Assembly: GCA_051294375.1 (NCBI GenBank)
Contig: JBJCIZ010000239.1
Location: forward strand, 2,555,476 to 2,619,475
Reading direction: 5' to 3'
DNA: 64,000 bases
From: Paraspadella gotoi
Lineage: Eukaryota; Animalia; Chaetognatha
In this document: positions 12,329-63,646 of the stretch, in pieces
How the letters are laid out: each line of letters opens with the position of its first letter
Numbering within the stretch: position 1 is the stretch's first letter
Position numbers and translations under genes: made by a program
The notes under the pieces: model-generated
Databases searched by the model: none
What the model was told of the DNA's origin: nothing
What the model saw: only the letters and a program-made list of their open reading frames with translations

Positions 12329-13860
12329 ATTTTTTTTAAATCTCTACCGAATATTTTCAGAGTTTGCAAAGCTTGATATACAAATTTATTTCAATTATTT
12401 CTAGAATTTGTAGGTACCTACTCCGATTTATGAATTGAATTTTAGATTCCTACCTCGAATATTATCATTGTCAAGCGGTAAGAATATTATGTAATCGGGC
12501 GCAAGTAACAGCAAAATAAGACGCTTATTATCACGAATGTTTACTTTGTGAAGATGGGAAAATGATCGGGTATGTTTAATAATAACCAATAGCATTTTGT
12601 CGACAAATGAACATTATCTTTATTTTATATTCTTGTTTACTTATCACTAAGGTAAGGAACAAAATATCATCCTACCTTCTCTCGATTTGTAGCTAATGTG
12701 GAGAAAAAAGTAATGATGCCGTCATGGGGGAGAATGGTGGCATCTCCGTCAGTCTAACGGAACGAGAAGCCGTCAGTGATGTGTTGACCCTCAAAACATA
12801 TGACGATTTAGATAAATTTCATGAAATATGGTATTGTTTTGTGTTAGTTTTATCCGACTTCATGTTTGCTGAAACATTTGGTCTGTTTCATTAGGTTTTA
12901 CATTTTCATATGGAGCTTATTCAGCTCAATCGTCGTTCATACTTTATCGGCGCTTATAGCCACCTGTAAGCTTCATCAACACAAGTGTGGTCGTTTTTAT
13001 CCATTGGTTATGGTCATCATGGGCGTGATTTCACCACTAACAGGTTGGTTCTTCCGTGACTCATTTTATTTTTTTTCACACTTTCTGTTATGGGTAATTT
13101 TTTCAAACAGGCGGTTCCTGTACATGCGCCGTCATTGCCGTCGTTTTTACCGCCGCTAGATGGAAGATGTCGGCCATTATGGCAATGTGTTTTGGCGTCG
13201 GTCAAACTGGACTTTTGATTGCCGTTTCCATGTCTAGAATTCTCGCAACGCTATAGATTTTTTGTGGAATCCACCGGTTGTGATCAATTAATTACATGGT
13301 TTCCAGTCATTTTAATTACCGTATTAAATCTGTAAGTAAAACTTATGTATCCTCTCGGTTAACAATAACTCTTCCGTATTCAAAAACTTCCCATTTATCT
13401 AATAGTTACAACTTGAATATAATTCACAGTGCAATTAAATTCCTAAAATATGATCTTATGTTTGCACATTGTGCCAAGTTTTTTTTGTAATGTAACAAGT
13501 GGTTTTTTGTTATTGGTTTTTATAAAGATTACCTTCAATATTAGTAGTGTTTTGTGCTACTTTTATTTTAGCTTAAAACAAGGGACTCATGCCTTCATAA
13601 ATATTGATTAGGATTAACGATAATTAATTACTTTTGCGTTGAAATTCACTACTCATGGATGATACAATTCGTTTTGATCAACATTGATTAAGATTAGTCT
13701 TTTCTATATTCAAATTTCTGATTTTGTTTTAATGCTGTATAAACCAAGATTTACGTGGGAATCTAATCTTTAAATTGGCGTCTCAGGACTTTCAATGAAA
13801 ACTCCCTTATCTTTTACACAATCAATCTTGGATTCCCCTAAATTTTTTTCGTATCTCCAG

Positions 13861-15759
13861 ATGAGTAAAATGGCAATAACGGATACGACGTTTTTGAGGA
13901 AGAACTCCGAGTATGTTCTTAACTCTAGTTCGGCCGGATCCGATCCCTCAAACAAATCACTCTTTCTGGTCAAGCTCACGGATTCGTCAGAGCGTGCCTT
14001 GGAAAACTTTTTCAAAAATCACAAACGGCTGGATCGAAGACCCATGATCAATTTCGAGAGCGCCACTGGCGGCAGAATCAGCATACCTTCGGAAAACCAA
14101 AAAGGCAAGGACGAGGATGACGACGTCTTCTTCTTCTCCATCGCCACAGAGACCAACCGGAAATGCTCGGAAATCAATGTCGAAACGCCTTCCACTGCGC
14201 TATCGCCGCTGGGCGTGGCCAAATTGAAACTAACCATCCACGCCACGAACGAAACGTTTTCTCAAACGCGCGAGAAGATGGCGCTCATCGAAGACGCCAA
14301 CAAACAGCAGCAAGCTAAGGAAATCAGGCCGGGATTAAAGGGAAAACGAGGAAAGCAGATGGTTGAGACTAAAGCATTCTCGGCTAAACCGACAAAGGCG
14401 TCATTCGTTTCTTCGGCCCCAAAGCCATCTTCTTCTTCATCCGGGTCTCGCGGAAATCCGCCCTCAACTTCGACAAAGTTGGAATCTGGAATCCGGCTTA
14501 AACCCAAACCCGAGCCGTGTTTGCCACCAAAGCAGCCCACTCCTCCGCCTCGATCTCAAGACTCAAATTCCGCGGCAAATTCGACTCCGACGGCTGTGAT
14601 ATTAAGTGGGCGTGGCCTACGCGAACGCGTCGTTCATCTCCTCGCCCTTCGTCCTTACAAGAAAGTGGAATTGATCTTACGCTTGAGAAATGACGGATTC
14701 AGTCTTCCCAAGGGCGACCCGGATCCTTTCGTCGAATTGCTCAACGAGGTCGGCAACGTTCTCCAAAAGGGGACCAAAGCTTCCAGCTACATGTTGAAGA
14801 AAGAGTTGTACAAGGAGGTGAACCGAGATTGGGAAAGTTACTCGGAAGAAGATAAGAAACTGCTAACCAAGCAGATTCATCACTTTGAGGGCGGCTCCGC
14901 GGCGACGACTGCGGCGTCGGCCCCGGCAGATTCGTCGAGATCTCTTTCGACTCCTTCGTCGTTGAAACGTCCGCCGTCGATTTCTCCGCCCGACGAAGCG
15001 GGCGCGCCGCCTTATTCGAAAAAACAACGAATCGCTCACAAACCCAAAGTTGCGTCGTTGCAAGAGGCTTCACCCTCTGAGAACAGAAACGTATCTCCTC
15101 TCCCTCCTTCCGAGTCGGCGCCCTCGACAGTGGTTCCATCATCGAGCGGTAAACAGAATAACGCTCCAGGGCGATCCTTTGGTACTTCCTTCAAAACAGC
15201 GCCGTTGCCGAACGCTTTGAAGCATCCGAAGCTTCTGGGAACGACGCCTCTCGGTCCGACCACCGGGAACCCCTCGGCCGTCAAGAATTCCCGCCCTTTT
15301 GCGGAATCGTCCAATCAGAAGGCGAGAGAGTCTGGCCACGAAGAAGCGAGAGCGACCGACACCGATTACGTCGTCAAGTATCAAAAGATTCTTTCGGACG
15401 ATCAAGAGAAACAATACGCTCGAGATTTTGACCAGGAATACAAAGAATATTCGGAATTGTTGGAACACATCACCAAAACCGCTAAACACGCTCAAATTCT
15501 CGATCAGGAGTTGGAGAATACGAAAGAGGGAACGTCCGAACACGAAGACGCTAAGAAAAATCTTCTCGACTTTCATAAAGAGTTCATTAAAAAAGGCGAC
15601 CGGCAACGAAAACAGCGTTTGACTTATTTGGCTCAAAAACTCTCGCACATAAAACGTCTCATCTTCGATTATAACGAACGGAAAAAGTTGAATAATTCGA
15701 ACAACAACGTCGACTTCCCTTCGAACAGTCCCGAAAACGGTGCTACTGCTCACGCGTGA
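13861..15759 (+). CDS. ELL: RNA polymerase II elongation factor ELL family, intronless
   Basis: N-terminal FLVKLTDSS...IHATNETFSQTREKM, central LRERVVHLLALRPYKKVEL, C-terminal occludin/ELL domain (FDQEYKEY...KLSHIKRLIFDY). ATG chosen directly after a tttttttc...ccag acceptor. Confidence 0.92.
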   Translation: MSKMAITDTTFLRKNSEYVLNSSSAGSDPSNKSLFLVKLTDSSERALENFFKNHKRLDRRPMINFESATGGRISIPSENQKGKDEDDDVFFFSIATETNRKCSEINVETPSTALSPLGVAKLKLTIHATNETFSQTREKMALIEDANKQQQAKEIRPGLKGKRGKQMVETKAFSAKPTKASFVSSAPKPSSSSSGSRGNPPSTSTKLESGIRLKPKPEPCLPPKQPTPPPRSQDSNSAANSTPTAVILSGRGLRERVVHLLALRPYKKVELILRLRNDGFSLPKGDPDPFVELLNEVGNVLQKGTKASSYMLKKELYKEVNRDWESYSEEDKKLLTKQIHHFEGGSAATTAASAPADSSRSLSTPSSLKRPPSISPPDEAGAPPYSKKQRIAHKPKVASLQEASPSENRNVSPLPPSESAPSTVVPSSSGKQNNAPGRSFGTSFKTAPLPNALKHPKLLGTTPLGPTTGNPSAVKNSRPFAESSNQKARESGHEEARATDTDYVVKYQKILSDDQEKQYARDFDQEYKEYSELLEHITKTAKHAQILDQELENTKEGTSEHEDAKKNLLDFHKEFIKKGDRQRKQRLTYLAQKLSHIKRLIFDYNERKKLNNSNNNVDFPSNSPENGATAHA

Positions 15760-16665
15760 GCTTCGGCTAATTTCACTGCAACTTTTTTTTAGGGCAAAAT
15801 AATTGAATTGAATCGAATCGTGTGGAATGATGATTGACGTGAGCTAATTTATTTTCCGGTTCAATGATGAAAAATTGCATTAATATAGAGGGTTTATCGA
15901 GTTTCCGATTTTCGATTTTCTTCTTCCAATTTAAATTTACCCGACGGTGCGGACAGGTGTTATATAAATAGCGTAGTTATTTATTTTCAGACCCTTTAGA
16001 ATAATTTGGTTTCGTGGATTCATTAATATTTTTACGTGTTAGGTTTGAAAGATGTCATTCAGTTTTTGAGCTGCTTCTTTATTCAGTCTTCCTTCTATTA
16101 TCTTTCGCTACTATGAATTTTATATTTATTTTTTTCTTACTCTAAAAATAATGAAAATTTGTGAGCGGGTCCACTATTTAATTTTCAACCGTATATTTAC
16201 TGATTTTTACAGTAATCTTCCTGTATGCTATAAAAGAAAAATGAAAAAATTTTCGGATCAATATTTTGAAAGAAAAAAATGTGCATCAATTGGGATACCA
16301 TGCGAGATCGTTCTTACCATTGCAACAATATTGGCGGGAAAGCTTGATGATCATAACCTAACTACTCACCTCCTACGAAGGTGCTGTTTTGTCTCGTTTT
16401 GCCAAGTGTGGAACCCTCGGGTTGATGTTGGCTCAACAACTTGATGGGATTATTTTGATATGACCCCCTCCCCCCTCACGGCTTTTGTTAAGGAATGCAA
16501 TTCATTCATTAAAATTGGTGGAGTATAGACTATAGAGTCTGCGCTGCAGATGATAGAGCGTTTCCTTCATTTTTTTCATCCCGTCTCAACTTGAGGAAAC
16601 CATTTTGTTTAATATTATAAGGATATAAGGATGAATTTTATTAACGTTAAACTTAAAGAGACGTC

Positions 16666-16668
<3 letters not shown>

Positions 16669-16703
<35 letters not shown>
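16669..16703. repeat. Poly-T homopolymer, about 35 nt
   Basis: Directly visible in the ELL-TENT2 spacer. Confidence 0.9.
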
Positions 16704-16704
<1 letters not shown>

Positions 16705-17071
16705 TTGATTGTCGAAGCGATTAGATTAGATAGGCGCCTCGCCCTTTCAGCATTTTGCTTGAAAACTCATCTAACAAATGATTTCGTTTAAATGCAAGAA
16801 AAGAAACACTCTTGTTAAAACCACCTATAGCTGTATGTTTTTAACTTGCCTTATTTAATATTGTCATACGCTTTACCATTTAGGAATCGTAAGTAAGTTT
16901 TGATATTAGAATACGAACCCAAATTTTTTTTTGGACGAGTGGTGATGACTTACGCTGCTACTTTTTTTTTAAATATTGGCCTCTGTCGTCTGTATGAAAT
17001 TAAATAGTTACAAAATCTTTTTTTTTTACGATTGTCTGTTGGTCCCTAATTCCAGGTTTAATTTGATAAAA

Positions 17072-19063
17072 ATGAAGCGCAATAATTCCTTTCGATCCGA
17101 TTCTTACAACCCTCATAAACGGAGTAGGTCGGATAATTACAATTTTAATCCCTACCTAAACGCCTCATACGCTCAACTTCCGCCCTATTGCTTCCCCCCG
17201 GTTCCGCCCCAACTTTTTTACCCACCACCTCAAATTCCTACAACTTCTCTGTACCGGCATCCCCCGACGGTATGGTCTCAGAACTCGCACCCCGTAAGGC
17301 AGGTTCCACGCACCGAGCCGCTTCACAGACCCCGTCCGAAACAGAACCTTCCTCAGGATAGCAACGTAAAAAACCGTGAATCTGGCGAGGATTCCTATCC
17401 TCTCGTCACTAAATCTATCATGGAATATGTCCGCACAAATGGCCAATCGGAGCAAATTTTGCAAACTAAAATGAATCTACGGAGCAACATGGAACGTGCG
17501 TTAAAGGGATTATTCCCAAGTTGCGATCTTTTCTTGTTCGGTTCGAGCGCCAGCGGCTTCGGCAGTAAAACCTCTGACATGGATATGTGTTTGGTAACCA
17601 ACTTGGTTCAAGCTAAAGACGTTAAGGCACTTTACAAGATCAAAGCGGTTCTCTCGAATCAATTTAACCTAAAAAAACTTCAGGTCATAAACGCCAAGGT
17701 GCCAATTTTAAAGTTTGTCCATGCTTCGACTGAGATTCAGTGCGACCTTAACATCAACAATTCCGACGGGGTGAGAAACACTCACCTTTTGAAATACTTC
17801 ACCCGATCGGATCCCCGATTGGTTCCGCTGGTGTTGGCTATCAAGAGATGGGCGCGTCAGCATAAGATCAACGACGCTTCCCAAGGAACTTTTTCCTCTT
17901 ACGCTTTGACGCTGATGGCTATTCATTACCTCCAATGCGGCGTTCATCCTCCGGTCCTCCCTAATCTACTGGCGGAGAACGCGGAGATTTTTCATCCTCG
18001 GCGACGGCTTCAAAGTCTTTCGTTTAACGATCAAGTCTTTGGTAATTTTCGATCGACGAATCCCAAAACCGTCGGGGAGTTGTTCGTCGGTTTTCTCACC
18101 TACTTTTCGAGAGACTTCCCGTACCAGTATTCTGGGATTAGTCTACGGGAAGCCAGGGTCGTTCCCAAGCGAACGGCGAAAGAGTTTTCCAAATTGGTTT
18201 TCATCGAAGAACCCTACAATCTGGACAACGTGGCGAGAGCCGTTCAAAAACATAACGAGCCTTACATCAGAAGAGTCATCGAGTCATCTTGGAACTTGAT
18301 AACCAAGATGAAACAGTTCGAACCTATTCTTGGATTCAAAGTCAGTGGTTCCGAGAAGATAGTTTCTTTCAATAATTTTAATAAACCCGTAGTTGTACAA
18401 GCTAAGAAAGAGGAAAGAACGACGAGCCAGACAAAGAGCGAAGAGGAATCCTCGCCCACTCAGAAAGACCCAACCCCCGCTCCCCTAATGGCAAAGGATG
18501 AGAAAACTAGGAAAATCGAAGAACTGACCCCCAACCCCCTCTCAGAGAAAGATGTGGTGGTAATCGAAGATGAAACACCCGTTCCCCTCACGGGAAAGGA
18601 AGCGGGGAAAATTGATGACCACACCTCCAGCCCTCTATTAGTAAAAGAAGCGGGGATAATCGTAGATCAAACACCCATTCCCCTCATGGGGAAGGAACCG
18701 GGGAAAATTGATGACCACACCTCCAGCCCTCTCTTGGAGAAAGAAGTTATGATAATCGAAGACCCCGCGGAGAAAACCGAGGACGCCGCTTCTGGTTGCG
18801 GCGTTAGCGAACTTTACCAACTCAGCTTGAAGAGCTCCTTCAAGGTCTCGCTAGAAATCGTCGGTGAGAGCGGCCCAGCTCACGCGCGGGAATTCCGAGT
18901 GAAATGCACTGTGATTCTTCGAAAGGCCGCGATGGAAACTCTTCTCGTTTCGACGGGAGGTGGAACCACAAAGAAGATGGCCAGAAACGCCGCTGCAAAG
19001 AACATGATTAATATATTGAAAGAGAGAACGATGGGTCTGGATATAAAGGAGACCTTCCCCTGA
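17072..19063 (+). CDS. TENT2: GLD-2/TENT2-type cytoplasmic poly(A) polymerase with a C-terminal dsRNA-binding domain, intronless
   Basis: Nucleotidyltransferase motif LFGSSASGFGSKTSDMDMCL, AKVPILKF, CDLNINN, GVRNTHLL, PAP-associated IEEPYNLDNVARAV. C-terminal SELYQL...ESGPAHAREFRVKCTV...GTTKKMARNAAAKNM is a dsRBM signature. Confidence 0.85.
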   Translation: MKRNNSFRSDSYNPHKRSRSDNYNFNPYLNASYAQLPPYCFPPVPPQLFYPPPQIPTTSLYRHPPTVWSQNSHPVRQVPRTEPLHRPRPKQNLPQDSNVKNRESGEDSYPLVTKSIMEYVRTNGQSEQILQTKMNLRSNMERALKGLFPSCDLFLFGSSASGFGSKTSDMDMCLVTNLVQAKDVKALYKIKAVLSNQFNLKKLQVINAKVPILKFVHASTEIQCDLNINNSDGVRNTHLLKYFTRSDPRLVPLVLAIKRWARQHKINDASQGTFSSYALTLMAIHYLQCGVHPPVLPNLLAENAEIFHPRRRLQSLSFNDQVFGNFRSTNPKTVGELFVGFLTYFSRDFPYQYSGISLREARVVPKRTAKEFSKLVFIEEPYNLDNVARAVQKHNEPYIRRVIESSWNLITKMKQFEPILGFKVSGSEKIVSFNNFNKPVVVQAKKEERTTSQTKSEEESSPTQKDPTPAPLMAKDEKTRKIEELTPNPLSEKDVVVIEDETPVPLTGKEAGKIDDHTSSPLLVKEAGIIVDQTPIPLMGKEPGKIDDHTSSPLLEKEVMIIEDPAEKTEDAASGCGVSELYQLSLKSSFKVSLEIVGESGPAHAREFRVKCTVILRKAAMETLLVSTGGGTTKKMARNAAAKNMINILKERTMGLDIKETFP

Positions 19064-19701
19064 GAGTTTTTCAGGTGGAACTTAATGGTTAGATTTGTCA
19101 TCTTTGTAGCTTTTCAGTCGACGCCCATTTAATGTCAATCAAACAAGGAAGGGTAATTTAAAAGTGTTGCGATTAGCGAAAGTTGAATAGTTTTGTCTCT
19201 ATATTTTGAATAAATGCTGTCAAATTAGAATGAATGTTGCTGTCGTTTTCTTTGAACTTCATTTCATAGACTTAGTTATAATATTATTTTAGAAATTTGA
19301 GATGAAAAAATGTACATTTTTACGTTTGGTGTAAGGTCGATTCATAATTAAAATAAGTTCCTTTATTTTATATACTACATATTGATTATGTAATTTGTAA
19401 ATGAAACTCGGCGAAAATTAATTCTATGTAGAAAACAGATTTGCTTTTTTTTTTAAGAATGTTTACCAAAATTTTTGGCAAAAAAAAAAAAGAATGGGTT
19501 TCCGATTTTGAAAACTACGACCTGATCACCACCCCCCCAATTTTTTTTTTCAATATATAAATTAATAATTATGAATTAGTTTTAAATGATTGATTTTTTT
19601 ATTTTTTCTACGAAGTTAGGTACACAAGAAATATTTTGTCCGATTATTTTTTTTTCCAGGTACACGACTTATTAAAAGGGAAAAAAAAGAGAAATATTAC
19701 G

Positions 19702-21686
19702 ATGAGATCTTTGAAAGAGATGACATGGACCGAGCTCGTCGTTCTCGGTGGGTCACTCTCGGCCGCCACCTTCAGCCTTTACCTCCTCTACTTTGACAAC
19801 GACGAAGAACTTCTGCCCGAATCCTCGGGACTCACGATTACTTCTCGTCAAACCGTCATCGAAGTGAAAATCCCCAAAGATATGGCTGGTCACGTGATAG
19901 GGCCTCAAGGTACCGTCGTCAAGAGAATCCAAGCGGAGAGCGGCGCCCGAATTCACTTCAAGGACGAGGCCACCACCGAGACCCACCGCTTTCTCATGGT
20001 GCGGGGAAGCCAAGAGTCCGCTCAAAAGGCCGAAGTCCTCATCAAGCAAATAATCAACGACGTGCCCGAAATCCTCAAGATTGAATTGAAGGTGCCGCAA
20101 CACTTTCTCGGTCGACTCATCGGCAGAAACGGGGACAACATCCGGGCTTTGCAACGCTCGTCCAACGCCAAGGTCATCATCGAACGAACGTCCGACGAAA
20201 GAGATCCCAAAGCGCCTAAAAAAGTGACGATTACGGGGGCGGCGGAACACATCGAAGCCGCAAGGGGTTTGATCGAAGAACAGATGGAGAAAGAAGAGGC
20301 TTTCAGGTAGGAAATACGTTTTTTCGTCCGAATTCGATTCGCATGGTTAAAACTTCTTGCTCAACGATGCATTGCAGACAGAAGCAACGATTCGCGGCCG
20401 AGTCTCGAGGAAAGAGAGACAGGAACAAAACGAAAGCGACAACCGCAACGACGACGACTTCCGCCGCCGCGTCGAGCGGGAATCTCGACTACGAAGGCGA
20501 ATATCAAGACCCGCGGATCGAAATCCAAGGCAGCAACGGAAGTTGTTGTCCCTTCCATGCTCCCGACGCCGTTGACGGATCCGGCGACGCGGAGAAAGCG
20601 GAGAGCGTCCGAACTCCCGTCAAACTCCCCGCTCACCACGGCTTCTTCGACGTTTACGTCTCGGCTCTCGACTCGAGAGAAGCCAACAGACTTTGGATCC
20701 AACTTGGTCGCCAAACGGAAAAACTCAACGCGCTCAACGACGATTTGAGTCTCTTGTATAACTCTCCCGCCGGCGACGAATTCGCTCTCCGGGAGAACGT
20801 CCGGGAAGGCGACTTAGTGGCGGCGAAATTGAACGCTTATTCGGATGTCAAGTGGTTTAGGTATGAGAGAGACCAATTTTCAATAAATCAAAACAAAAAA
20901 AAAACTCTTATTACGCGAGAATATTTTTCTTTACGTCGAAGGCTGTAGGCTGTAATGGTTTTGTATGGTTTTGGATGGTAAAATCAACCGCCAAGTTTTT
21001 CTTTAAAATGTGTGGCAAGGTCTCGGTCGCGAGAGAGAGGGATATTTTGAGGTTTGGCATGATATAAATTCATTGATTCTTTGGCAGTCGTTGTCGGGGT
21101 TGTTGATTGACACCTTGAGTCATAATTTTAAGAGGTTTGTTTTTTGTTGTTGTTTTTTTTTTAATATTTGTCGAATTTTCTATCAAAACTTTGTCATACA
21201 TCGCTTTTGATTTAAATACGTTTTGCAATCCGGCGAGACTGCAACTTTTCTATTGACAATTAACACTGAATTTTCAGGGCCACCGTGAAAAAAGTTCTCA
21301 ACGAGCCGTACAAACTAGAAGTGTTCTACTTGGACTACGGCGACGTCGCCGTCGTCGAATCTTCCGACGCACGACATCTCAAGGACGAGTTCGCCTCTTG
21401 GCCCGCGCAAGCCGTCGAATGTCTCTTGGCCAACGTCCAATCCGTCTCTTTGAATCAAAACTCTGAAGGAGAAGCCGTTTGGAGCAACGATGCGCTCGAC
21501 TTTGTCGACGCCCGCACGTACAACGCCCAATGGGTTCTTCTCTATGCCAAAATTGTCGGCGGGAAGGTGATCGATGGTTGTAAACTGCCGCTGATAGAAT
21601 TAATCGATACGAACGGACCCGAAGATGTCAATGTGGCTCAGAGCCTCGTGGAAGCCGGCCATGCTCGCTTCGTCGAGACTGGATGA
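19702..21686 (+). CDS. TDRKH: Tudor and KH domain protein (PAPI); exons 19702-20306, 20378-20860, 21278-21686
   Basis: N-terminal TM segment, two KH domains (VIGPQG, LIGRNG), extended Tudor (WFRA...VFYLDYGD...PAQAVECLLA). Splice phases are consistent. Confidence 0.9.
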
Positions 21687-21934
21687 GCAGTGGTCTGACT
21701 CGCGTGTATCCTCTGATTATTTAAATGCACCTAGGTACCTCTGTAGATGTACGTAAGCTTCCATTCAATTACGTATTAGTCAGCTTGTTTACAAGCAATT
21801 GTGCATTCTTTGATCTTGTTTTCCTTTTTGATGAACGATTTTATGTCTAAACTCGAAACTTTGTTTAATATTAATATTTTTTCTTTAGTGGTATATATAT
21901 TTTAGGTCTCTTTTGTTAAAGATCAAACGCAAAC

Positions 21935-22928
21935 ATGTTGGCAAAGGGTTCGTCAACCGCTTCGCCCGGACCCAAGTCCCCCAATGACTCCACCGTCATC
22001 GACCTGGAAGGTTTCGACGACTTCGACGCTCTCGAATCCCCCAGCGATATCTCCGAATCGGGACCCGACTCTTTCCCCTCTCACGAAGCCAAGTTCACCT
22101 CTGTCACTGACGAGGACGAGGACGACGACGTGTCCGCTCACTTCCGCAAGCAAATGCAGGACAATATGACGGACATGTTGTGGAAGAGCGGAAAGGACCA
22201 CGCGCAAAAAGCTTTCAACATGTACGCCAAGATCGATATCCTGAGGCCTTATTTCGACGTGGAGCCTTCGCAAGTCAGAAATAGATTGCTGGCCAGTTTC
22301 GTGCCCGTGCTACCGACAGCCAAGAAGCAATCTTCGATCCCGGGCGACCTTTATGGACCGTGTATGATAATATTCACGTTGATCGCCATACTTTTGTTTC
22401 AGATGAAAGGTGAGTGATATCGACTTGAATAAGACCGGAGATCATTAATTGGTAATTGGTTTGTTTCTTGAATTCTTTGAAATTTCAGTCTCCTCTCACC
22501 GCGTAGAGGACGGGACGTTAATGGGCACGGCCTTCGGTCTTTGCTTCACCTACTGGTTCGGATGTTCCGCCGTCCTCTTCGCCATGTCCTACATGTTCAA
22601 TACGAAGCTTCGCCTCCTTCAAATCCTATCCCTCCTCGGCTACGCCATGTTTTCCTATTGCGTCGTCCTTTTCCTCTCTACCGTCGTCCACGCTTATCAC
22701 TCTCACCTTTTCTTCTACGCCGTCTGGATGATTTTCGGCGGACTGGCGGCGCTTCGCCTCGTCGCGGTCTTTTGGGCTCGGACGGGCGACCGGCGGAACA
22801 GAGTCGTCGTTGCCGCCGTCGCCGCCGCCTTTCACCTTCTCTTTCTCATGTATCTTCACTTCGCCTTTCACGAAGACGTCGTCGAGTTTGAGGAAGTGAT
22901 CGAAGAGTTGGCCGCTCGAACTGGATAA
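21935..22928 (+). CDS. YIPF3: Yip1 domain family protein 3 (exons 21935-22409, 22489-22928)
   Basis: YAKIDILRPYFDVEPSQVRNRL, DLYGP, EDGTLMGTAFGLCFTYW, multiple TM helices. Confidence 0.9.
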
Positions 22929-23093
22929 AACGATCAATTTTTCTCAGCTTTGTTTAAGTCTAAAACTTTGACCCTCTCAATATTCTAGTCCGTTTATCTC
23001 CACCGATTCTTTTCTGTTCCTGACAGGTTTGTTTTGTGAAATTAACAGTTTTAAAAAGCAAGTCAAAACTAAAAATATCAAAACAAAAACATT

Positions 23094-24096
23094 ATGGCTG
23101 ACGGGATCAGTGATTTAGACAGACAGATCGAACAACTTCGAAGATGCGAAATCATAAAAGAGAGCGAAGTAAGAGGGATTCCTTCATTTTTATAAAATTA
23201 TTATTTTGTGGATGCGATTCACACCTTCGCGTTCCTCACCCCAGGTGAAAGCCTTGTGCGCCAAAGCTCGAGAAATCTTGGTGGAGGAAAGCAATGTTCA
23301 ACGCGTCGACTCGCCGGTGACCGTTTGCGGCGACATCCACGGACAGTTCTACGACCTAAAGGAACTCTTCAAGGTCGGCGGGGACGTGCCCGAGACAAAC
23401 TACCTCTTTTTGGGTGACTTTGTGGATCGGGGCTTTTACAGCGTGGAGACGTTCCTGCTGCTCCTCGCCCTGAAGGTCCGCTATCCGGACCGCATCATGC
23501 TGATCCGCGGGAATCACGAGTCGCGCCAGATCACGCAAGTCTACGGCTTTTACGACGAGTGCCTCCGCAAATACGGCTCCATCACGGTCTGGCGGTATTG
23601 CACGGAGATCTTCGACTACCTGTCTCTCAGCGCCATCATCGACGGAAAGATATTCTGCGTCCACGGCGGACTCTCTCCCTCCATCCAGACGTTGGATCAA
23701 ATTCGTTCCATAGACCGGAAGCAGGAGGTGCCCCACGACGGGCCCATGTGCGACCTCTTGTGGTCGGATCCCGAGGACACGCAAGGTTGGGGCGTGTCGC
23801 CGCGCGGCGCGGGTTACCTGTTCGGTAGCGACGTCGTGGCCCAATTCAACGCCACCAACGACATCGACATGATCTGCCGAGCCCATCAACTCGTCATGGA
23901 GGGATACAAGTGGCACTTTAACGAGACGGTCCTCACCGTCTGGTCCGCTCCCAACTATTGTTACAGATGCGGCAACGTCGCCGCTATTTTAGAACTGGAC
24001 GAACATCTCCAGCGAGACTTTACGATCTTCGAAGCCGCGCCGCAGGAAGCGAGAGGGATGCCGGCGAAAAAACCCACCCCTGACTATTTCCTTTGA
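23094..24096 (+). CDS. PPP4C: Serine/threonine protein phosphatase 4 catalytic subunit (exons 23094-23168, 23245-24096)
   Basis: [20 protein letters not shown]|[30 protein letters not shown]-terminal DYFL. Confidence 0.97.
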
Positions 24097-24778
24097 AGAG
24101 CTGGTTTCGGTAGGGACTTAAGATTGTGGACTGGACAACTTTTTAATTTAAAAACTTATCCATTGCAGACGTTTTATGTCGTTTTCATTCATTGTTATAA
24201 ATGAAAGGAAGGAATTTTCGTCGGTCGATGAAAAATACTCAATAAATCTAGTATAATTTTTTTTTTCTAAACTTAAGTCGAAAAAACATGAGGACGTTAT
24301 ATAGGGTATCAAGATATAAAAATCAGACAACCCAATGATATGTTTTTGAATTTTTTAGTGTATTTTGCTTTCATTTAGGAAGTTTTTTTTATTAATTGAA
24401 AATTAAATACGTATGTTAAACTGCCTTTTCGAAAAAAATTTTAAAATTAGTAAAGCTGGGTTGAGCTCTGAGTAAAATTTTTTGCCTGGATTCTTTTGGT
24501 ATTTTATTTTCACATACCATGTATTGGGCAATGGGGCTTTCAAATAAAATTCCGTTATGATTATAAATGATTTTTAGAATGTTCAACTGTGACTGAAAGT
24601 AAGAAACCAGTTTCACGATCGGTTTTATCCAATTTAGGCTTCCATTCATTGTACTTTAGAAAGCCTATCTGTGCAAATTTTTCAAATTAATGTTCCATTC
24701 AAATTCACAATTTTCTGTTAAAAATTTAGAACTCTCAAGACAGTCAAAAGGTATAACCGTGGAATCATCGCGACTCTA

Positions 24779-30084: not shown

Positions 30085-30127
<43 letters not shown>

Positions 30128-30262: not shown

Positions 30263-30301
<39 letters not shown>

Positions 30302-50500: not shown

Positions 50501-50513
50501 TGCAGCCCTTTGA
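47513..50513 (+). CDS. Sp1-4 family transcription factor, about 8 exons
   Basis: Sp box [14 protein letters not shown], Buttonhead box [10 protein letters not shown], three C2H2 fingers ([34 protein letters not shown]), acidic last exon ending at TGA 50511-50513. Confidence 0.9.
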
Positions 50514-53910: not shown

Positions 53911-54049
53911 AAAAAAAAAGATTTATCTCTGATTTTATAACGAGAGGGGTTTTTGCGCTTGTTTTAAAATTTGTTACTCGTTGATCTATTTATCATTTAG
54001 GCTTTTATAGTAATCTAAAAAAAAACACAAACTCTGATTAGTGATAAAC

Positions 54050-55164
54050 ATGGACAAAAGACGAAACGATCCTGGCGATCATCGGTAAGTTTCGTGATTT
54101 ATGAAATTGGTACAACCAATATAAAAAGTATCCATTCATTTAATAAATAAGCTATCTTGCCCCTGACTTTGGTCAGGCTTTGGAGGCCTCCATCACTCTT
54201 ACAAGATAATGACAAAGCAGGTCCCTGCAAGCTTTCAATCATGACTCTTTTATGTGGAAATCACCTTAACCAGAGTCGCTTGGTCATCTTTTCTTCTGTA
54301 AGAGATGATTATTTAATATGATCTTAAATGAGATTGAATCTATCAATCTCATTTACATATTGCAGTATTGAATCTAAATGTGTCTAATCATGTGTCTAAT
54401 CATCTCTTACACTTCTTTTTTTTTTCATAGGCGAAAATGGGACCGGGAGGAGTACGAAAGGATGGCCGTGATGCGCATCGAGATGGAACAGCGAAAAGGA
54501 GATGTGGACGATTACAAAGAACCAGCGCCGCAGCGCGAGATGCTCAAAGCCAGAGATTACAGAGTACGCGAGTGTAAGAGATGATTATTATCATCTAAGT
54601 TATTATCCATCGTAATCGTTAGACTTGTAATTTCGTCGCAGGTTGATCTCGAGGGAAAATTGGGAAAGAGCGTCGTCGTGACTAAAACGACGCCGAATTC
54701 CGAAAGCGGCGGATATTATTGCAACGTCTGCGATTGCGTCGTCAAAGATTCCATCAATTTCTTGGATCACATCAACGGCAAGAAGCATCAAAGGTTTGGA
54801 CACGATCGTTGAGGATTGAGGGATTCATTCGGACTCCTTTTATCTGTCCTCTTCACGTTACAGAAACATGGGCATGTCCATGAAGGTCGAGAGATCGACG
54901 TTGGATCAAGTGAAGAAAAGATTCGAACTGAAAAAGAAAGAGTTGGAGAAGAAGAGAAAGGAATACGACCTCGAGGAGCGAATGAAGGAGATCAAGGAAG
55001 AGGAAGAGAAGATGAAGGCTTATCGAAGGGAAAAGAGAAAAAACAAAAAGCGAAAGGCCGACGGGGATTTTGACGATGACGAGGAAGCCGGGGGCAGCGC
55101 CGATCCCGACATGGCCTCCATGATGGGCTTTGGCGGCTTCGGGACTTCCTCCAAGAAAAAGTGA
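54050..55164 (+). CDS. ZMAT2: Zinc finger matrin-type 2 (Snu23), 4 exons
   Basis: DHR|[13 protein letters not shown]|[63 protein letters not shown]. Confidence 0.95.
54297..54411. repeat. 115-bp element with 15-bp terminal inverted repeats in ZMAT2 intron 1 (possible MITE)
   Basis: TGTAAGAGATGATTA ... TAATCATCTCTTACA, flanked by CTTC on both sides. Contains an internal perfect hairpin taaatgagattga/tcaatctcattta. Confidence 0.6.
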
Positions 55165-55367
55165 CGAGGAAAAATTGAAATGTATACTGTGTAGTAATTT
55201 TGTATGTATTGTATTTTTATGTTGACTTATTATTTCTTGTCTTACAGCTATTTAAGCATATAGAATGCCAGACTGCTTATGAATTTTCGATAATCAGGCC
55301 GTGGATAAAAAGATATTGAGTTAAAACCAGAAGATTTTTCCTGAAGTAATTCTCAGTCGACCTCGAA

Positions 55368-55968
55368 ATGGCCGATCGAATAACCCAACTTCAAGACGCT
55401 GTTAATCAACAAGCGGATAATATGTGTAATAGCATCGGTGTTATCCAACAATTCGCCAAACCGTCGCCCATCCAAATAGCCGGGGTAGTCAAACCTGCAA
55501 TCATCAGTCCTCAAGGTTTGAAATGTTAATAAATTATTCTTGCAGTATTTACTATTTACTTTATTCAAATACTTATAACGCAAAACCCTGTCATCGATTT
55601 AGCTGTTGGCTACGCTTGGTTTTCATTTGCCGCATTCTTTTTTCACAGGCTCCTCCGCAGCTCACGACTACCCCGTACTATTCGCCCAGTTGATCGCCCG
55701 GACAGCCAAGGACATCGACGTGCTGATCGACTCGTTGCCCTCGGAAGATTCCTCCCCCGAACTTCAGGTGGCCGCATTGCGAAGACTCGAAACAGAGAAT
55801 CAGGAGGCGGCTCGGCAGTTGGAAGAGACCGTCGCCAAAGGGGAGGTGTTGCTCGAAAAGATTCAAAAGGTTTTGAACGAAGTCGCCGATTGTCAGCTCA
55901 AGAGTCAACGCTTGCAACATTTGAAAGCGATGGGGGATTCTCGTGCTTTCGACGACATTCCCCGTTGA
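55368..55968 (+). CDS. MED21: Mediator subunit 21, 2 exons
   Basis: [14 protein letters not shown]...NSIGVIQQ; [22 protein letters not shown]. Confidence 0.95.
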
Positions 55969-56075
55969 TTTTTGATGTTTCATTTTTTGATATTTTTATT
56001 GTTATTCTTTTAATTATGAGCCGCATTAGTACATTCTCTTTTGTTTCATTCCAAAGAATTAAATTAAATCAAGAA

Positions 56076-58164
56076 ATGGCATCTACTGTTTCTGTGTTGT
56101 GCCCCAATGGACATCGGGTCACCGTGAAAGTCACCCCGACATCCAGCATCCTCTATGTGATCGAAGAGGCTTGCAGAAAGAAAGGATTTAATGCCAACGA
56201 ATTCGACATCAAAAGGTGCAGTTTTATTCGAAGTCCAAGAATTAAATTAAATTGTATTTTAACTACTTTTATAGAAATGTAATTCTTATTTTACTAGTCA
56301 ATCATACTTCAAACGTTAAATTTATAATAATATTTTTCTTCCGTTACAAAAATGTCCTGTTTTTTTTCTCAGCGAAGCGGGTAAGACGCTCCTCGATGCC
56401 TCTCTACAAATCCGCTACGCTAATATCCCCAACAACGCAAAACTCGAACTAGTCGCAGCTTCGACGCAGCGCCGCTGCGCCGACGCCAAAGTCTCCATCA
56501 CTCTGCAGCTGCCGGACGGCGCCCGCCTCAAACCCATCGACTTTAGCACCGACGCCACCTTGTGGTCGATCGTGGAGAAGTTCGAGGAACAAGAAGGCAA
56601 CTCATTGTCGGGATCCGCCGACACTGAGGAGCCCGTCCTCGTTTACCTGCGCGATCAGGTCGGCGGCGTTTCCGCGCTCAAACGCACCACCCTGAAATCC
56701 GTCGGACTTATTTCCGGCCGCGGACTCTTGCGTCTTTTGTATCGACCCAAGAGCGAAGATTCGAAGGAAGCGGCCGTCCAAGATGAACGGCCCTCAATCG
56801 CGGACGAGGATCCCTTGGCCGGGATGAAATTGAGCGACGATCATCTCAAGATGATATCCTCGATCAGCCAAGGTTACGCAGAATACCAACGTCAAACGAA
56901 TCTCTCTCGCGACGAAGCGGGCTCGAATAAAGACGGCGCCGTCGCGGGTCCCTCGCCTTTCGCCTTTCCGGGACCCGGCCGGGACTTCTTACCCTCGGCC
57001 CCTCCCGCCGTCTCGAAACCGCCTCCGCCGACGATGGTGCCCGTCGCCGTTCTTTTTCCTCAGCAGCCAGACTTTTCAAACTTCCGGTTTCCCTCGAATC
57101 TTTCGTCGGAGATTGAAGAAAACGAAGCACCGTCTTTGCCCGACCCATCCACGGAGCCCTGCGACAGGGAACGGAAAGTCTTTTATTTGGACGCTCTCCA
57201 GGTTTTTTCTTAGTACCACCGAGAAAGGTTCAACTTTCTCTAAGCTTACTTTTTTTTGTTTAAAATTCACAGACATAGTGTCACATTCTCGTCTCGTTGC
57301 GATTAATAATATATTAAAAACATAAATAATACGTATTACAAGACTTTTTTATCACAGTCTCCTTCGGACGAAGCCTCTATGGATGTCGACGGCGACGAAT
57401 CTTTTTTCGATGTCACCATCGAAGACTTGAGGTCACGAATGCACGACTTGAAGAAGGCGACGGCCGATGAGCCGCCTCTGCTCACCCAAGCGATGCGCGA
57501 AAGATGGGAAGAAGCCAAGTACGCTAATTATCACCGCGCGCTCGTCAGAGTTCACTTTCCGGACAGACTAGTTTTGCAGGTGAGAAATTTTTTTCTTTAA
57601 ACAGAAAGAGTATGTTTAGTTATTTATTACATTTAAACCAGGGAATGTTCCGATTGAAAGAGTCGGTCGCTTCTCTTTACGATTTTGTGTCTGAGAATCT
57701 TGAGAATCCTTCGCTGCCGTATTCGCTTTTTCTCACGCCTCCACGGAAAGACCTCAACGACAAGAGCCTGACCATGATAAAGGCCGGGCTAGCACCGGCG
57801 GCCAATGTTCATTTCTCGTCAAAAGGCGGCGCCGCCAACGGGTTGTCCGCCAAGTGCGTCGAAAGCGCCGTCTCGTCCGATCAAGTATCAGAGTGAGTAA
57901 TTTGTTTTCAATAATAATTTTTTTTCAATAGTGTATTTTTTTACTTTTTTTCTCAGTTCTCTTGGCAAAATCTGCCACTCTGGTCGTCCAGTCAATCACA
58001 ACAAACCAAACTCCTCTGCCCCCAATCGGTCCGCCGTGGATCTCGACCAACCGCCCGCCAAAAGACCGACCGTCGACGATAAAGACAAATCTTCGGGGAA
58101 CTCCGCCGCCAAATCTTCTGGAGGCGTAGTTCCCAAGTGGTTTCCCGTTAAAAAACACAAATGA
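56076..58164 (+). CDS. ASPSCR1: Tether containing UBX domain for GLUT4 (TUG/ASPL), 5 exons
   Basis: STVSVLCPNGHRVTVKVTP ubiquitin-like N-terminus, RYANIPNNAKLEL, FFDVTIEDLR, VRVHFPDRLVLQG UBX, C-terminal VPKWF. Confidence 0.9.
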
Positions 58165-58298
58165 TCATTGCTGTGATTTTTATAGTGATATTGGGCTTTT
58201 TATTTAAAGAGATTTGAAACTATTGTTTCTTTCGGCTGACGTTTATTTTTTATTATTTAGGATGCGATAATTGTTGTCCTAGTAAATCCTAATCATTG

Positions 58299-60252
58299 AT
58301 GTTTGGACGATACGTCCTAAAGTTGGGGCGAGCGTTAACGAAAGCGACGCGAAAGACCAGCGTTAGATTTAATCAAAAAGCCAGAATGACGACCGAAAGT
58401 TCCAGCGGCGAACCCCTGGCGGGACTAATCATTATCGGAGACGAAATACTCAGCGGTCAAACTCGAGTAAAGCCAATAAATCCTAAGCTAAGACGTAATC
58501 GTTGAACCGAATAAGTTAAAATAAAAAAAAAATAAATAAATAAAAGTCCATTCGCAGGACACGAATTCGCATTTCATGTGCAAACGTCTCTACGATCTCG
58601 GGGTCCGCGTCGCCCGCATCTCCGTCATCCCCGACGAGTTGGAGACGATCGCCAGCGAGGTCCGTCGCTTTTCCGATTCCTACAATCACGTGATCACCTC
58701 GGGCGGAATCGGACCCACTCACGACGACCTCACTTTTCAAGGTTACCTAGCAGTTTTCGGTTAAGATTAATTAATTAATTAGTCGAACGAATTTTTAATC
58801 ATTCGACTCTTCATAAGGGATCGCCAAAGCTTTCGGGCACGAATGCCATCATCACCCGGAATTGTTGGCGTTGATCAAGAAATGGGTCAAATCCAACGAC
58901 GAGTCGCAGCCTCACTTCAAAATGGCCTTCGTCTCCAAAGAGGCGACGCTCAAGTTCGGACTCGATCCAAAATCTGGGGAGAAAACCAATTTCCCCATCG
59001 TTTGCCTCAAAAACGTCTACGCCTTTCCCGGTCCGCGAAATTGTTTTCCACGAAACGATTCTTCATCGCTTTAAAGTTTGACCGACCTAATTTCCCCCGT
59101 CAAAAGGCGTGCCGCATCTTCTCGAACACGCTTTTCCTTTGGTGGAAAAGGACCTCTTCGAAACTGGCGCCAACCCAACCTTTCACAAGCGCTTGGTTTA
59201 TCTAAACGCGCGAGAGACGATGGTCACTTCCGTTCTTTACGCCTTCAACGAAGCCTACGCCTCGAAAGGACTTCGTCTAGGATCCTACCCGGACTCTTTG
59301 CATAGTTATTACAAGGTAATTGTAATTATCACGGACTAATGATGAAGCGATATAATTTTGCTGTCCTCATTGCCCTGTCCAAGGTTAAGTTGACTCTGGA
59401 ATCCATGAATTCGGGTCTCTTGGAACAAGGTTATTCCCAGCTCATCTCCGACCTAAGAGACCACGTCGTTGATTTCGACGCGGATCCATCCGAGCATTTC
59501 TCAGAAAAGCTCGACAAGTTCGTGGAGAAACACGGAAAAACTCAGTTCGGGGCGAAATTGAATCAAACTATAAAGACGATTGAAGAATGTCTGGATCGAT
59601 ATTCCATGGACGAAATTTGCCTCGCTTTCAACGGCGGCAAGGATTGCACTGTTTTGTTATATTTGCTCGGAGGCATCGTCAAGAAACGCTTTCCCGATCG
59701 GGAGGCATTCAAAGCCCTTTACATCAAAAGGGGAAAAACCTTTCCCGAAGTCGAAACTTTCGTCTCGAAAATGGCCGAGGAGCATCGCTTGCAGCTGCTG
59801 ACCGTTACCGGGGGCTTCAAAGACAGGTTTAAGCCCAGATTTTCAATTTTCAATTCATTTCTATGGATATAACCAAAGTTTCTCGCCGCAGCCTGACGAG
59901 GGTCAAGGAGGACCATCCTGAGCTGAAGGCCATTTTGATGGGAACTCGACAAACGGACCCGTATTCTAGTCACTTAAACGCTTTCTCTCCGACGGACGAA
60001 GAATGGCCCTCGTTCATGAGGGTCAATCCCATTCTTTCCTGGAGTTTCACCGACGTTTGGACCTTCATTCGATCTCTCTACCTTCCCTACTGCCCCTTGT
60101 ACGATCGCGGCTACACCTCCTTGGGTCTGGCCGACAACACGTTCCCTTGTCCCAAGTTGGAATTCGTTAACGAATTTGGACAAAGAGATTTTTTACCAGC
60201 TTATAAGCTCAAGTGCGACGATGGGGAGAGGGAAGGGAGAATGTCCCTTTGA
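58299..60252 (+). CDS. FLAD1: FAD synthase (molybdopterin-binding plus PAPS-reductase domains), 6 exons
   Basis: AGLIIIGDEILSGQT, TSGGIGPTHDDLT, FPGVP, AFNGGKDCTVLL, MGTRQTDP, MRVNPILSW, YCPLYDRGYTSLG. Confidence 0.95.
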
Positions 60253-60705
60253 TATAGTGATTACTTACACTCGGATTAAAAATCGAAGGTTTCGGGTTTA
60301 ATTTCTTCGCCTATGCCCTCGGAAATTTTTGGTTGCTGATACTAGCCACTAATACTATCTTGTTCTTTTAAAGAATTTTTGAATGTTTATCGATCTGTGA
60401 TCTTTTGGTGAAAATTAGGTTGATTTTTAGCCTAATGTTTTTGTTTTTGTACCTTCCAGGTTTTATGAATAATTAGAGAAGAGATTAAAAAGTTAATTTG
60501 CCCATCGTGCAGTGATTTTTGATTCATTTATTCATTCATTCCTTTATTCACTCATTCATCAAAAATAATGAACCGAGTTTGATTCTTTACTATAAAATTT
60601 TTTTCAGATTCACGTTATAACCAATTGAATTAATAATTTCAACTCTAGAAATGTGTTCCTGACTTTACGAGGCTGAATGGGATCCAAAAACCAAACGTTG
60701 GAATA

Positions 60706-63045
60706 ATGATGCTGAGAATGATGGGCAGCAACGGGAAGGGACGCGGAGATCTCATCGACTACGACTCGGAGGAGGAACGGCGCTTCCGGTTCGCCTCCGA
60801 CGAACGCTCGAGGCACGAGGGATTCCGCAAGGGCGCCGACTACGTCTCGCGTTACGGAGACGAATCCATCCACAACCTGTGGACCACCGTCGACGCCACG
60901 CCCCATCGGCAAAAGTGGAAGAGGAGATTCCGTCATAGCAAGTATCGGGTCGTGGGTAAGTTTTTTGGGTAATAAGATTCGTGATCAAAATGGGAAAAAG
61001 GAGTAACAAAATTTGGAACGCGTCGTCAGGCAACCTTCGAAGCCTCGTTCGCATAATCGGCTCCATGCTGCCGTTGGAGATCGACGCTCGGGTGGTGATC
61101 AATCCGATGCTTCGCAATCCCGACCAACGACCGCTGGAGCTGCAGCAAGTCGCCGCCAACTTCATCGATTGGGCCGGATGTCGCGAGCCAAAGGAGGCCA
61201 ATCTCAGGGTTCCCACTTACGGCGACGTACCCACGTGAGTCAATGTAGAAAACTTGAATAAGTTTAACGAAAATATTATTAAACTTACAATTTGACCAGC
61301 GTCCTGGAAGACTCTGTGCCGGCATCGATCGAGTCCGGAATTTTCTGGCGATGTCTTCCGCAAGACGTCGTCGCTTTGAAATCTCAGTTTGCCCTGACGG
61401 CGGAACCGATCTCAGCTCTCCAAATGCCACCGTGGAAACGCCCGAGGAAAAAGAAGAGATACTTCCGCGCCGAGGGAGTCAAATCGTTGAGGTGAAATCT
61501 TTTTTTTTGTATGATATTCATTGATGAATAATGACTCGATTCTATTATGGTTAATTGGTTATTATGAATTGTTTATTATCGACAATTGATTTTCCACAGA
61601 AAAAGTCCCATTGTCCAGAGCAGCGGTTACGAGAGCAGCGGTCAAGAAACTACGTCGAGCGACGAATACGCCAATCACAACAACAACTTTTTTCGCCACG
61701 ACGTCGCCGCTCGAATGAACAACGAAAGGACGATGGAAACTTCAACGCCTCCGCCTCTGGGCGCCGAGGCTTCTTGGTTGGCCACCTCGACTCCGGTCAG
61801 CAGGGCGGAAGGCTCCCTCGCGGGTATTGACGAGTGATACGCTTCAAAGAAGGAAGCGGACGAATCGGTGATTGACGAATCGAGAGGGTCTTTCTCCAGG
61901 TTCTTCCGTGTCCCAAGACCCCGAAGCGATGGCGAAGATCTCCGCCCTGGAAAGCGAACTGGGCGCGTTGAGGAGTCAAATCGCCATGCTCATCATGATG
62001 CAGGAACGTCGCGTTGAAAGTGCTACGCCCCCAAAGTGCCATCCTCCCCCACCACCACCACCACCTTCTATGGGAGCCCCTCCTCCCCCGCCGCCTCCGC
62101 CACCGCCTCCGCCTCCTCCACCGCCGCCTTTACCCTCTGGCGCCAAGTTATCTCTTAAAGAACAGATAGTAAAGGTATTGTTCGAATAAGTGTAACAATA
62201 TTATATTATCTCTTATATTGTTTTATACCCCTTTATCCATACCATTCATCAGAATAAAACCGGAACGAAATCTTCAAATTCGAGCGACGTCGAGAGCTCT
62301 ACTTCTTTGCCCCGAAAGTCTTCAGTTACCAACAACGGCGCTCCGAATCTCGGAGACGTTCTCAAGGGTAAGCCCGCGCGGGAAAAAAAAAATCATCTCT
62401 CATCGTTATCAGTTGTTGTAATATTAATTATGATTGATATTATTATTTTACAGATTTGGGAAAAGTGAAGCTCCGTTCGGTGGAGAGATCCCCGAACGGA
62501 ACTCCACTCCGACCTCCGCCGAATCCCTCGGCCCCTTTGGACGCGGCGTCTCTCATCGCCGCCGCGCTCAAGAAGAGATTCAACGCCAACTACCGGTACT
62601 AAAGGCTTTTCTCAGAAAAGCGATTCTCTTTCGAGCTCGACGCCCGAAGAGAATCCCCCACTTTTTACCACCCCTACTTCCCAAAGAATCGGATTATTGT
62701 AGACGTACATAGAATAGATACCAGCCTGGGCGGAAAGAAATAAGCTAGTGATTGCTTTTCAGGTGCTTGCTTCGTGAGAAAGTTAATTACATTTAGAAAA
62801 AAACTCGGACCACTAATTTTTTGTTCACCAGAATGGATTCGCCCGAGAAGCCGCAATCGCAGAGTCGCAATTGCAGCGAATCGGAAATCTTCGACGACGC
62901 CACGCCCCCTTTTAAAACTCGGCTCAGGAGCGTGCCGGAAAAGGTCGCGCCTGCCGCCCCTGCTCCCTTCGGGCAACATTTGTTGAGAAAGAGCAAGGAT
63001 GGAATGAGAAGGAAACTTTTGGACGAGCAGGAGTCGGCCAAATGA
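60706..63045 (+). CDS. MTFR1: Mitochondrial fission regulator 1 family protein, multi-exon
   Basis: RSLVRIIGSMLPL, KISALESELGALRSQIA, polyproline tract, KLRSVERSPNGTP, AASLIAAALKKRF. The start codon is uncertain. Confidence 0.8.
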
Positions 63046-63646
63046 TCCCGTGACGCCTTCTTTCCTGGTTTACGTTAAATTTTCGAGAATCGATATCATT
63101 AATCAGCGGACCCCTGTTCAATAATAACACTCAAACTTCAGGTTGCATATTTTTTTTTACTAGAAACTTGTTAAGAGATAGGAGGTAGGATTGATGTTAT
63201 TGACCGGAAAAAAGATAACCGGGTTTTGTTACTATTTTGATTTTTGTGTCTTCACTTTTTAAAAGTCGTGATTAGACTATCGGTGCTTTCAGCTGGTCGT
63301 GATTTAAACCAACTACCTATACAATATTTGATGTAGATTTAGAATGTTAACACTAATTTTGGTTTTTTTTTCATTGTTTCACATAGTTTATAAATTCGTT
63401 ATTGTTAATTTAGGTCTATTTAGTCGAATTAAAAATGAAATTTTTTTACAAAACATTTTCTCTAATTGAATACGGATATTAGGATTATGAAGCGCAAAAA
63501 ATTCGACTCGCGACAATATGTTTGATGATGCCTTTTTTTTTTTGAAATAAAGGTAAGTGCTCTAAAAAAAATATATATTGAAAAATCTATTAAAAAAAAA
63601 ACGTAATGATCTAGTTTGTTCACAGCATCTTCACCACTGGGGAACG

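Follow-up and report, generated by a model that had tools for sequence, protein, structure and literature searches.

Most start codons in a 64,000-nt stretch of animal DNA (hereafter the window) are preceded by an AG dinucleotide resembling a 3' splice acceptor. Those of the AGs that lack a partner donor are probably spliced leader (SL) trans-splice acceptors, which would resolve the polycistronic pre-mRNAs of operons in a chaetognath-like animal. The genes concerned form an array of 26 protein genes, all 26 lying head-to-tail on the plus strand (Table 1). We built exon models for 23 of them, from ELL (13861) to NF2 (63647), and all translations are free of internal stops; the NF2 model is incomplete, as the gene runs past the window end. 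The chance of these 23 genes sharing one strand under random orientation is 2.4e-7. The three further genes, TMEM170 and two copies of a BTB-zinc-finger (BTB-ZF) gene, lie 5' of ELL on the same strand; the BTB-ZF copies were counted only from their starts (6030 and 9895) and open reading frames, and with TMEM170 present, ELL cannot be where the array starts. The 22 stop-to-ATG gaps of the modelled genes measure 107–321 nt in 12 cases and 453–1312 nt in the other 10; the gaps of 100–250 bp reported in a preliminary description of the window hold for nine of the 22.

That description had listed 15 AGs and read them as outron or intercistronic acceptors for SL addition. All 15 AGs are present, 13 of the positions given being the G of the dinucleotide, and the one before SPCS1 had been placed one base late (its G is at 43146). 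The statement that most start codons carry an acceptor is fair, but the uniformity across sites had been overstated. We trained an acceptor position weight matrix (PWM) on the 50 cis introns of the window and took the highest-scoring site at up to 100 nt from each ATG. The best ATG-proximal site scored on average 5.99 bits, against 4.42 ± 0.49 in dinucleotide shuffles, and 1/500 shuffles reached the observed mean. Sites above the PWM threshold were found in 18 of the 23 genes, a count reached by 18/500 shuffles. ATG-proximal scores also exceeded those of distal spacer windows (37/68 above threshold; Mann–Whitney U test (MWU), p = 0.004) and of the minus strand (46/97 above threshold; p = 0.0003), while the comparison with intron interiors (9/16) was borderline (MWU 0.037, Fisher 0.13). 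Strong acceptors were 2.6 times denser close to the ATGs (13 in 2285 nt within 100 nt) than farther off (20 in 9189 nt; p = 0.008).

A second acceptor rule, free of the PWM and post hoc in that it was framed once the data had been seen, was passed within 100 nt of the ATG by 16 of the 26 genes, compared with 26/77 distal windows (p = 0.012) and 15/105 minus-strand windows; only 19 of the 50 true cis acceptors pass it. Two of 1000 shuffles reached 16, and when the distance was extended to 130 nt the rule was passed by 19/26 genes and the count was matched in 0/1000 shuffles. Base composition shifts at the AG (53% T before it, 39% A after it), and the length of the AG-free run near ATGs differed only marginally (p = 0.047 and 0.075). 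Acceptor-like sites are moderately more frequent before the ATGs than expected by chance.

Paired and unpaired acceptors

We searched for donors in the spacer within 420 nt of each acceptor and took a best score of 4.0 or less to mean that there was no credible donor. The preliminary description had called the acceptors unpaired. This is the case for eight of the 15 (ELL, TDRKH, PPP4C, SLCO, CHMP1A, ZMAT2, MED21 and FLAD1), it fails for NF2 and probably for TENT2, and it is ambiguous for the other five (YIPF3, RING, FAM136A, SPCS1 and MTFR1, with donor scores of 5.9–8.7). True donors seldom score this low: only 3/50 have a score of 4.2 or less, which gives a binomial probability of about 1e-4 for eight donor-less sites among 15. 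Widening the search into upstream coding sequence gained no good donor (PPP4C 5.0, FLAD1 3.6, ASPSCR1 1.1), and three sites beyond the original 15 also lack one (ASPSCR1 56056, AP4E1 51449, CDC7 44145). The 50 cis introns modelled in the window have a minimum length of 59 nt and a median of 78 nt, and their donors lean on exonic CAG/G (the stroke marks the splice junction), the intronic consensus being weak.

The AGs might instead close cis introns in 5' untranslated regions (UTRs), whose non-coding first exons and promoters lie inside the spacer or overlap with the gene before it. This fits NF2, which has a perfect donor at 73 nt, and probably TENT2, the helix-turn-helix (HTH) gene, SPCS1, FAM136A and Sp. 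It does not fit the eight sites without a usable donor, where an intron of 59–160 nt was sought with upstream coding sequence included, nor the acceptors of PPP4C, ZMAT2, FLAD1 and ASPSCR1, which lie 88–100 nt past the previous stop when the shortest intron already takes 59 nt. As an account of the sites as a group, we consider it improbable.

Two of the 15 AGs are nevertheless best read in this way. The AG before NF2 is, to judge from its donor AAG/GTAAGT at 63553 (94th percentile), clearly an ordinary acceptor of a cis 5'UTR intron, and the one before TENT2 probably is as well. At NF2, an AATAAA overlaps the end of the T tract that precedes a further AG at 63552. The intervals 63546–63625 and 12651–12692 share this layout, a T-tract AG followed at once by GTAAG, 73 nt and 41 nt, respectively, before a second acceptor. 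The combination AG/GTRAG occurs in 0/50 true acceptors, while plain AG/GT is ordinary (14/50). Such sites could reflect re-splicing, or a donor that is removed by 3' cleavage.

Individual sites allow more than one choice of acceptor (Table 1). The AG at 13859–13860 directly abuts the ELL start codon at 13861, as originally described, and a leader added there would supply the whole 5'UTR; this is one of two readings, since a rival acceptor at 13786 scores equally and is followed by an in-frame ATG (13795). For ZMAT2, the AG ending at 54000 fits better than the one first proposed at 54010, which falls in the 2nd PWM percentile. The possible donor for the RING gene at 36496 itself sits 3' of an acceptor-like AG. 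Two ATGs lie between the FLAD1 acceptor (58260) and the modelled start (58386), and likewise two in MTFR1 (60607–60706); these are either short upstream open reading frames or a sign of the wrong acceptor choice.

Table 1. Coordinates of the gene array, of TMEM170 and of the acceptor sites before start codons. Positions are those of the window.
Feature	Position	Strand	Observations
Same-strand array of 26 protein genes	6030..64000	+	Gene models, Pfam and homologue searches
TMEM170 gene	12724..13256	+	PF10190, E 4.5e-14 and 4.1e-10
ELL candidate trans-splice acceptor, abutting ATG	13859..13860	+	82nd percentile; 72-nt AG-free run; best donor 3.6
TENT2 acceptor, probably of a cis 5'UTR intron	17054..17055	+	GTAAGT donor at 16889 or 16893 (167 or 163 nt)
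TDRKH candidate trans-splice acceptor, strong	19658..19659	+	94th percentile; best donor 3.6
YIPF3 acceptor, ambiguous	21904..21905	+	Donor 6.5 at 21735; further AGs at 21888 and 21921
PPP4C candidate trans-splice acceptor	23025..23026	+	98 nt past YIPF3 stop; no donor in spacer
SLCO candidate trans-splice acceptor, strong	33692..33693	+	94th percentile; best donor 2.0
RING-gene acceptor, strong, ambiguous	36707..36708	+	Possible donor at 36496 (213 nt)
HTH-gene acceptor, not listed previously	37847..37848	+	GTAAGT at 37734 could pair (115 nt)
FAM136A acceptor, ambiguous	42218..42219	+	Donor 5.9 at 42137 (83 nt)
SPCS1 acceptor, ambiguous	43145..43146	+	Donors at 43050 and 43077
CHMP1A candidate trans-splice acceptor	46230..46231	+	78-nt AG-free T tract; no donor; low PWM score (10th percentile)
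Sp-gene acceptor, not listed previously	47428..47429	+	GTAAGC at 47327 could pair
AP4E1 candidate acceptor, not listed previously	51448..51449	+	72-nt AG-free run; best donor 4.4
ZMAT2 candidate acceptors	53999..54010	+	100 nt past AP4E1 stop; no donor
MED21 candidate acceptor	55355..55356	+	No donor; others at 55247 and 55297
ASPSCR1 candidate acceptor, not listed previously	56055..56056	+	88 nt past MED21 stop in 107-nt gap; no donor
FLAD1 candidate acceptor	58259..58260	+	96 nt past ASPSCR1 stop; no donor
MTFR1 acceptor, ambiguous	60606..60607	+	Second strong acceptor at 60459, followed by GT
NF2 paired 73-nt 5'UTR intron	63546..63625	+	AATAAA 63546; T-tract AG 63552; donor GTAAGT 63553; acceptor 63625

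Spacers and the transcription of the array

Polyadenylation hexamers are scarce in the short spacers. On the stretch from stop codon to following acceptor, AATAAA occurs in one of the 12 (1.5 expected by shuffle), and AATAAA or ATTAAA in two of the 12. Either the animal relies on another 3'-end signal or its 3' ends are fixed by splicing at the downstream acceptor. Three long spacers contain the word ATGGCG, which we take to be YY1-like (at 31292, 40866 and 51155), and no short spacer does. These words give a weak hint of candidate internal promoters, in which case the array would consist of several operons. A TATTTAA word common to short spacers (5/12) was rejected after family-wise control (92/500), and an Rfam scan of the window returned no relevant RNA, only one chance match to a CRISPR repeat.

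The SL reading gains from this layout, because 26 genes share one strand and the gaps between many of them are too short to hold a 3'UTR, a promoter and a 5'UTR; it gains further because AATAAA is rare in the short gaps and because the probable lineage is one with published SL trans-splicing. Leaders could also be added to genes that are transcribed separately, each with an outron and without polycistronic read-through. The confinement of the putative promoter words to long spacers, which may thus hold promoters, speaks for such an arrangement, as does the report that in Paraspadella gotoi most trans-spliced genes lie outside operons (PMC12460157). However, the gaps of 107–250 nt need to accommodate a 3'UTR and an acceptor and leave no space for a promoter and an outron, and AATAAA is missing in 11/12 short gaps. 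We regard separate transcription throughout the array as very unlikely.

In the scheme that we favour, transcription by RNA polymerase II would begin at a small number of promoters, which probably lie in the long spacers, and run through several genes. In each spacer, the spliceosome would recognise the YAG and its T-rich tract and, finding no 5' splice site nearby, would use the donor supplied by an SL RNA from another locus, so that the downstream mRNA is capped. The upstream mRNA would receive its 3' end within that spacer as well, apparently in many cases with no AAUAAA. A minority of genes (NF2, probably TENT2) would differ in that the AG next to the ATG closes a 5'UTR intron; a trans-splice site, if there is one, would be located farther 5'. 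The interpretation given in the preliminary description is in this sense partly supported: for about half of its sites, leaving aside the cis acceptors of NF2 and probably TENT2, SL trans-splicing appears to be the best explanation, and there we infer both SL addition and read-through.

Several results weigh against SL trans-splicing. The ATG-proximal sites show no significant excess over windows placed just after stop codons (12/18, p = 0.14), the post hoc rule applied at 60 nt gives no significant difference from distal windows (10/26 vs 37/150, p = 0.11), and the enrichment is only about two-fold. The branch-like motif that had been described upstream of the AGs is not enriched there: YTRAY precedes 6/15 of the sites and 170/438 ordinary spacer AGs, which is background, and since only 26/50 true introns have it, the motif discriminates poorly in this genome. 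At 7/15 sites there is a plausible or clear donor, 144/420 random spacer AGs (34%) also lack one, and donors in UTRs may score too low in a model built on coding exons. The absence of a donor argues against a cis intron; it is no proof that the AG is used. A chaetognath SL 5' motif has 0 matches in the window, SL genes being expected elsewhere in the genome, and the N-terminal extensions of 5'-partial CHMP1A proteins from environmental sequences are, by eye, unlike the translated published leaders.

These results bear on a further explanation, in which every gene is driven by a compact promoter of its own and the majority of the AGs are unused, being chance dinucleotides that end T-rich 3'UTR or promoter sequence and were picked by eye. 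Spacers are indeed 39% T, distal windows often pass the PWM-free rule (26/77), the after-stop control was not significant, and a compact animal genome free of operons is reported for Dimorphilus (PMC7854359). Chance AGs agree poorly, however, with the excess over shuffled versions of that sequence (1/500 and 2/1000) and with a rule that is passed by 16/26 ATG-proximal regions vs 19/50 true acceptors, and they leave unexplained the 26 same-strand genes, the gaps of 107–165 nt and the missing AATAAA. We find this explanation unlikely.

Lineage and other features of the window

The closest protein relatives come from environmental sequences (JGI, ENA and Logan proteins on contigs of 1–3 kb). For CHMP1A these relatives reach 77–87% identity, while named animals reach 65% (chiton, hemichordate); for IPP they reach 62–63%, and among named animals the chiton reaches 46% and the annelid 44%; for FAM136A the closest, also environmental, reaches 74%, with named animals at 47–48% (barnacle 47%). 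No named chaetognath appeared among the matches of any protein search. For each of IPP and CHMP1A, we selected rows by hand out of about 120 matches (19 for IPP, 20 for CHMP1A) and built an unrooted single-gene tree; neither tree contains a named chaetognath, and the IPP tree has no tunicate or nematode row. In both trees, the window and the environmental proteins form a 100/100 clade in which the window branches first. The IPP clade lies outside deuterostomes (98/99) and insects, and its placement among molluscs and one annelid is not resolved in the unrooted tree. PPP4C is too conserved to place the lineage. A metagenome scan with the CHMP1A alignment gave 596 pattern matches and a single confirmed locus, which is unrelated (54% identity).

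The window has a GC content of 43%, which is also that of Xenoturbella bocki. We judged Xenoturbella a less likely source, because the window has many environmental relatives and because human orthologues of its genes are scattered over many chromosomes, whereas Xenoturbella retains ancestral linkage; we found operons and trans-splicing unmentioned in PMC11521371. The observed/expected ratio of CpG is 1.33 in coding sequence (above 1.0 in 23/23 genes) and 0.78 in an intronic retroelement, a contrast expected from the transposon-only methylation reported for P. gotoi (PMC12460157). The same methylation pattern is reported in ctenophores and some nematodes (PMC12460157) and is not diagnostic. 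Taken together, a probably protostome group that stands apart, has several species in environmental data, lacks an annotated proteome and shows this CpG contrast is probably Chaetognatha. Less likely, the animal belongs to a lineage for which SL trans-splicing is not on record; an animal of another phylum would add a further origin of the process.

In order, the array comprises the two BTB-ZF copies, TMEM170, ELL, TENT2, TDRKH, YIPF3, PPP4C, an RCC1-like gene, IPP, SLCO, a RING gene and an HTH-Tc5 gene (members 1–13), followed by TRIQK, FAM136A, SPCS1, a CDC7-like kinase, CHMP1A, an Sp-like gene, an AP4E1-like gene, ZMAT2, MED21, ASPSCR1, FLAD1, MTFR1 and NF2 (members 14–26). Names are backed by Pfam or homologue searches, apart from RCC1, CDC7, Sp and AP4E1, which we presume to be the right names where Pfam supplies the domain only; the piece of the RCC1 gene that was tested had no Pfam match. 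The window is strongly intron-poor: 8/23 modelled genes are intronless (ELL, TENT2, SLCO, RING, TRIQK, FAM136A, CDC7 and CHMP1A), and PPP4C and AP4E1 have a single intron each. The SPCS1 intron at 43305–43661 is of the GC-AG type. The TENT2-like poly(A) polymerase (17072–19063) carries a C-terminal dsRNA-binding motif (PF00035, E 3.5e-10). The HTH gene (37916–40796) encodes an 823-aa protein with a Tc5/CENP-B-type HTH domain and an N-terminus without assigned domain, and is possibly a domesticated transposase domain.

At the left of the array, the region 5939–12800 is a recent tandem duplication (83–96% identity) of the BTB-ZF gene and part of TMEM170, whose first copy (from 9572) is truncated and contains stops. 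A broken insert resembling a retroelement lies in the last intron of the RCC1-like gene (27063–30537, 3475 nt). It gives a weak GIY-YIG match (E 0.03), and we take it to be Penelope-like; a Pfam search of the insert found no match to a reverse transcriptase family. Cores resembling a hammerhead ribozyme lie at about 30372–30400 on the plus strand, at the end of this element, and at about 4285–4320 on the minus strand, in the left repeat region. They fold no better than shuffles (z −0.5 and −0.8) and have no Rfam match.

Comparison with known systems

SL acceptors and operons are already published for chaetognaths; if the window comes from one, they are to be expected, and the array amounts to a good detection, from sequence only, of a known system. 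In P. gotoi, 10,197 of 21,072 genes are reported to be trans-spliced and 18% to lie in operons, the longest of nine genes under a rule of <250 bp; tandem duplicates are also reported (PMC12460157). Leader sequences are published for Spadella cephaloptera (PMC2481426). The window resembles these systems in its housekeeping genes, its short spacers and its CpG-rich genes beside a CpG-poorer transposon (PMC12460157, PMC2481426), and probably belongs to the same phylum. SL use has been demonstrated in these chaetognath studies, while for the window array it is only inferred. Same-strand clustering is common to the array and to a 158-kb bacterial artificial chromosome of Spadella, for which Table S5 gives 19/24 rows on the plus strand, four on the minus strand and one without strand; three of the minus rows are labelled transposon and the fourth, unlabelled, lies beside them (PMC2481426). 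In Spadella, the poly(A) site of RPS14 is reported three bases from the PCNA acceptor, and the list of 119 trans-spliced genes contains no array gene by name (PMC2481426). Unlike the operons of P. gotoi, with their maximum of nine genes, the window array has 26 genes on one strand, about three times as many as in the longest operon known from chaetognaths, yet 10/22 of its gaps exceed 450 nt from stop to ATG. The main text on P. gotoi does not contain the words 'strand' or 'orientation' (PMC12460157), and we found no paper in the open-access literature on animal operon arrays this long.

The operons of tunicates (Ciona, Oikopleura) and Caenorhabditis elegans are similar to the array in that polycistronic RNA is resolved at unpaired acceptors, and those of Ciona, often without an intercistronic region, recall the short gaps lacking AATAAA (PMC7986045). 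They differ in having mostly two to seven genes (PMC7986045) and in belonging to other lineages; the IPP tree sets the window outside deuterostomes. Long head-to-tail arrays of unrelated genes are also typical of kinetoplastid polycistronic units, which are touched on in PMC7986045. Unlike these, the window is animal DNA; its array contains 50 cis introns, and internal promoters are possible. In kinetoplastids, poly(A) addition is coupled to the downstream acceptor, which would fit the missing hexamers of the window. On a bolder reading, the array (at least 26 genes over more than 58 kb, open at the right edge) would form one or two kinetoplastid-like polycistronic units, with upstream 3' ends set by trans-splicing without AAUAAA and with AG/GTAAG sites (63552, 12651) at which a leader is trans-spliced and then cis re-spliced; we think this rather unlikely. 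What is possibly new are strand-uniform housekeeping arrays far beyond the nine-gene maximum and spacers without a poly(A) hexamer. If the array were indeed one very long unit, arrow worms would test how far animals can approach trypanosome-style transcription.

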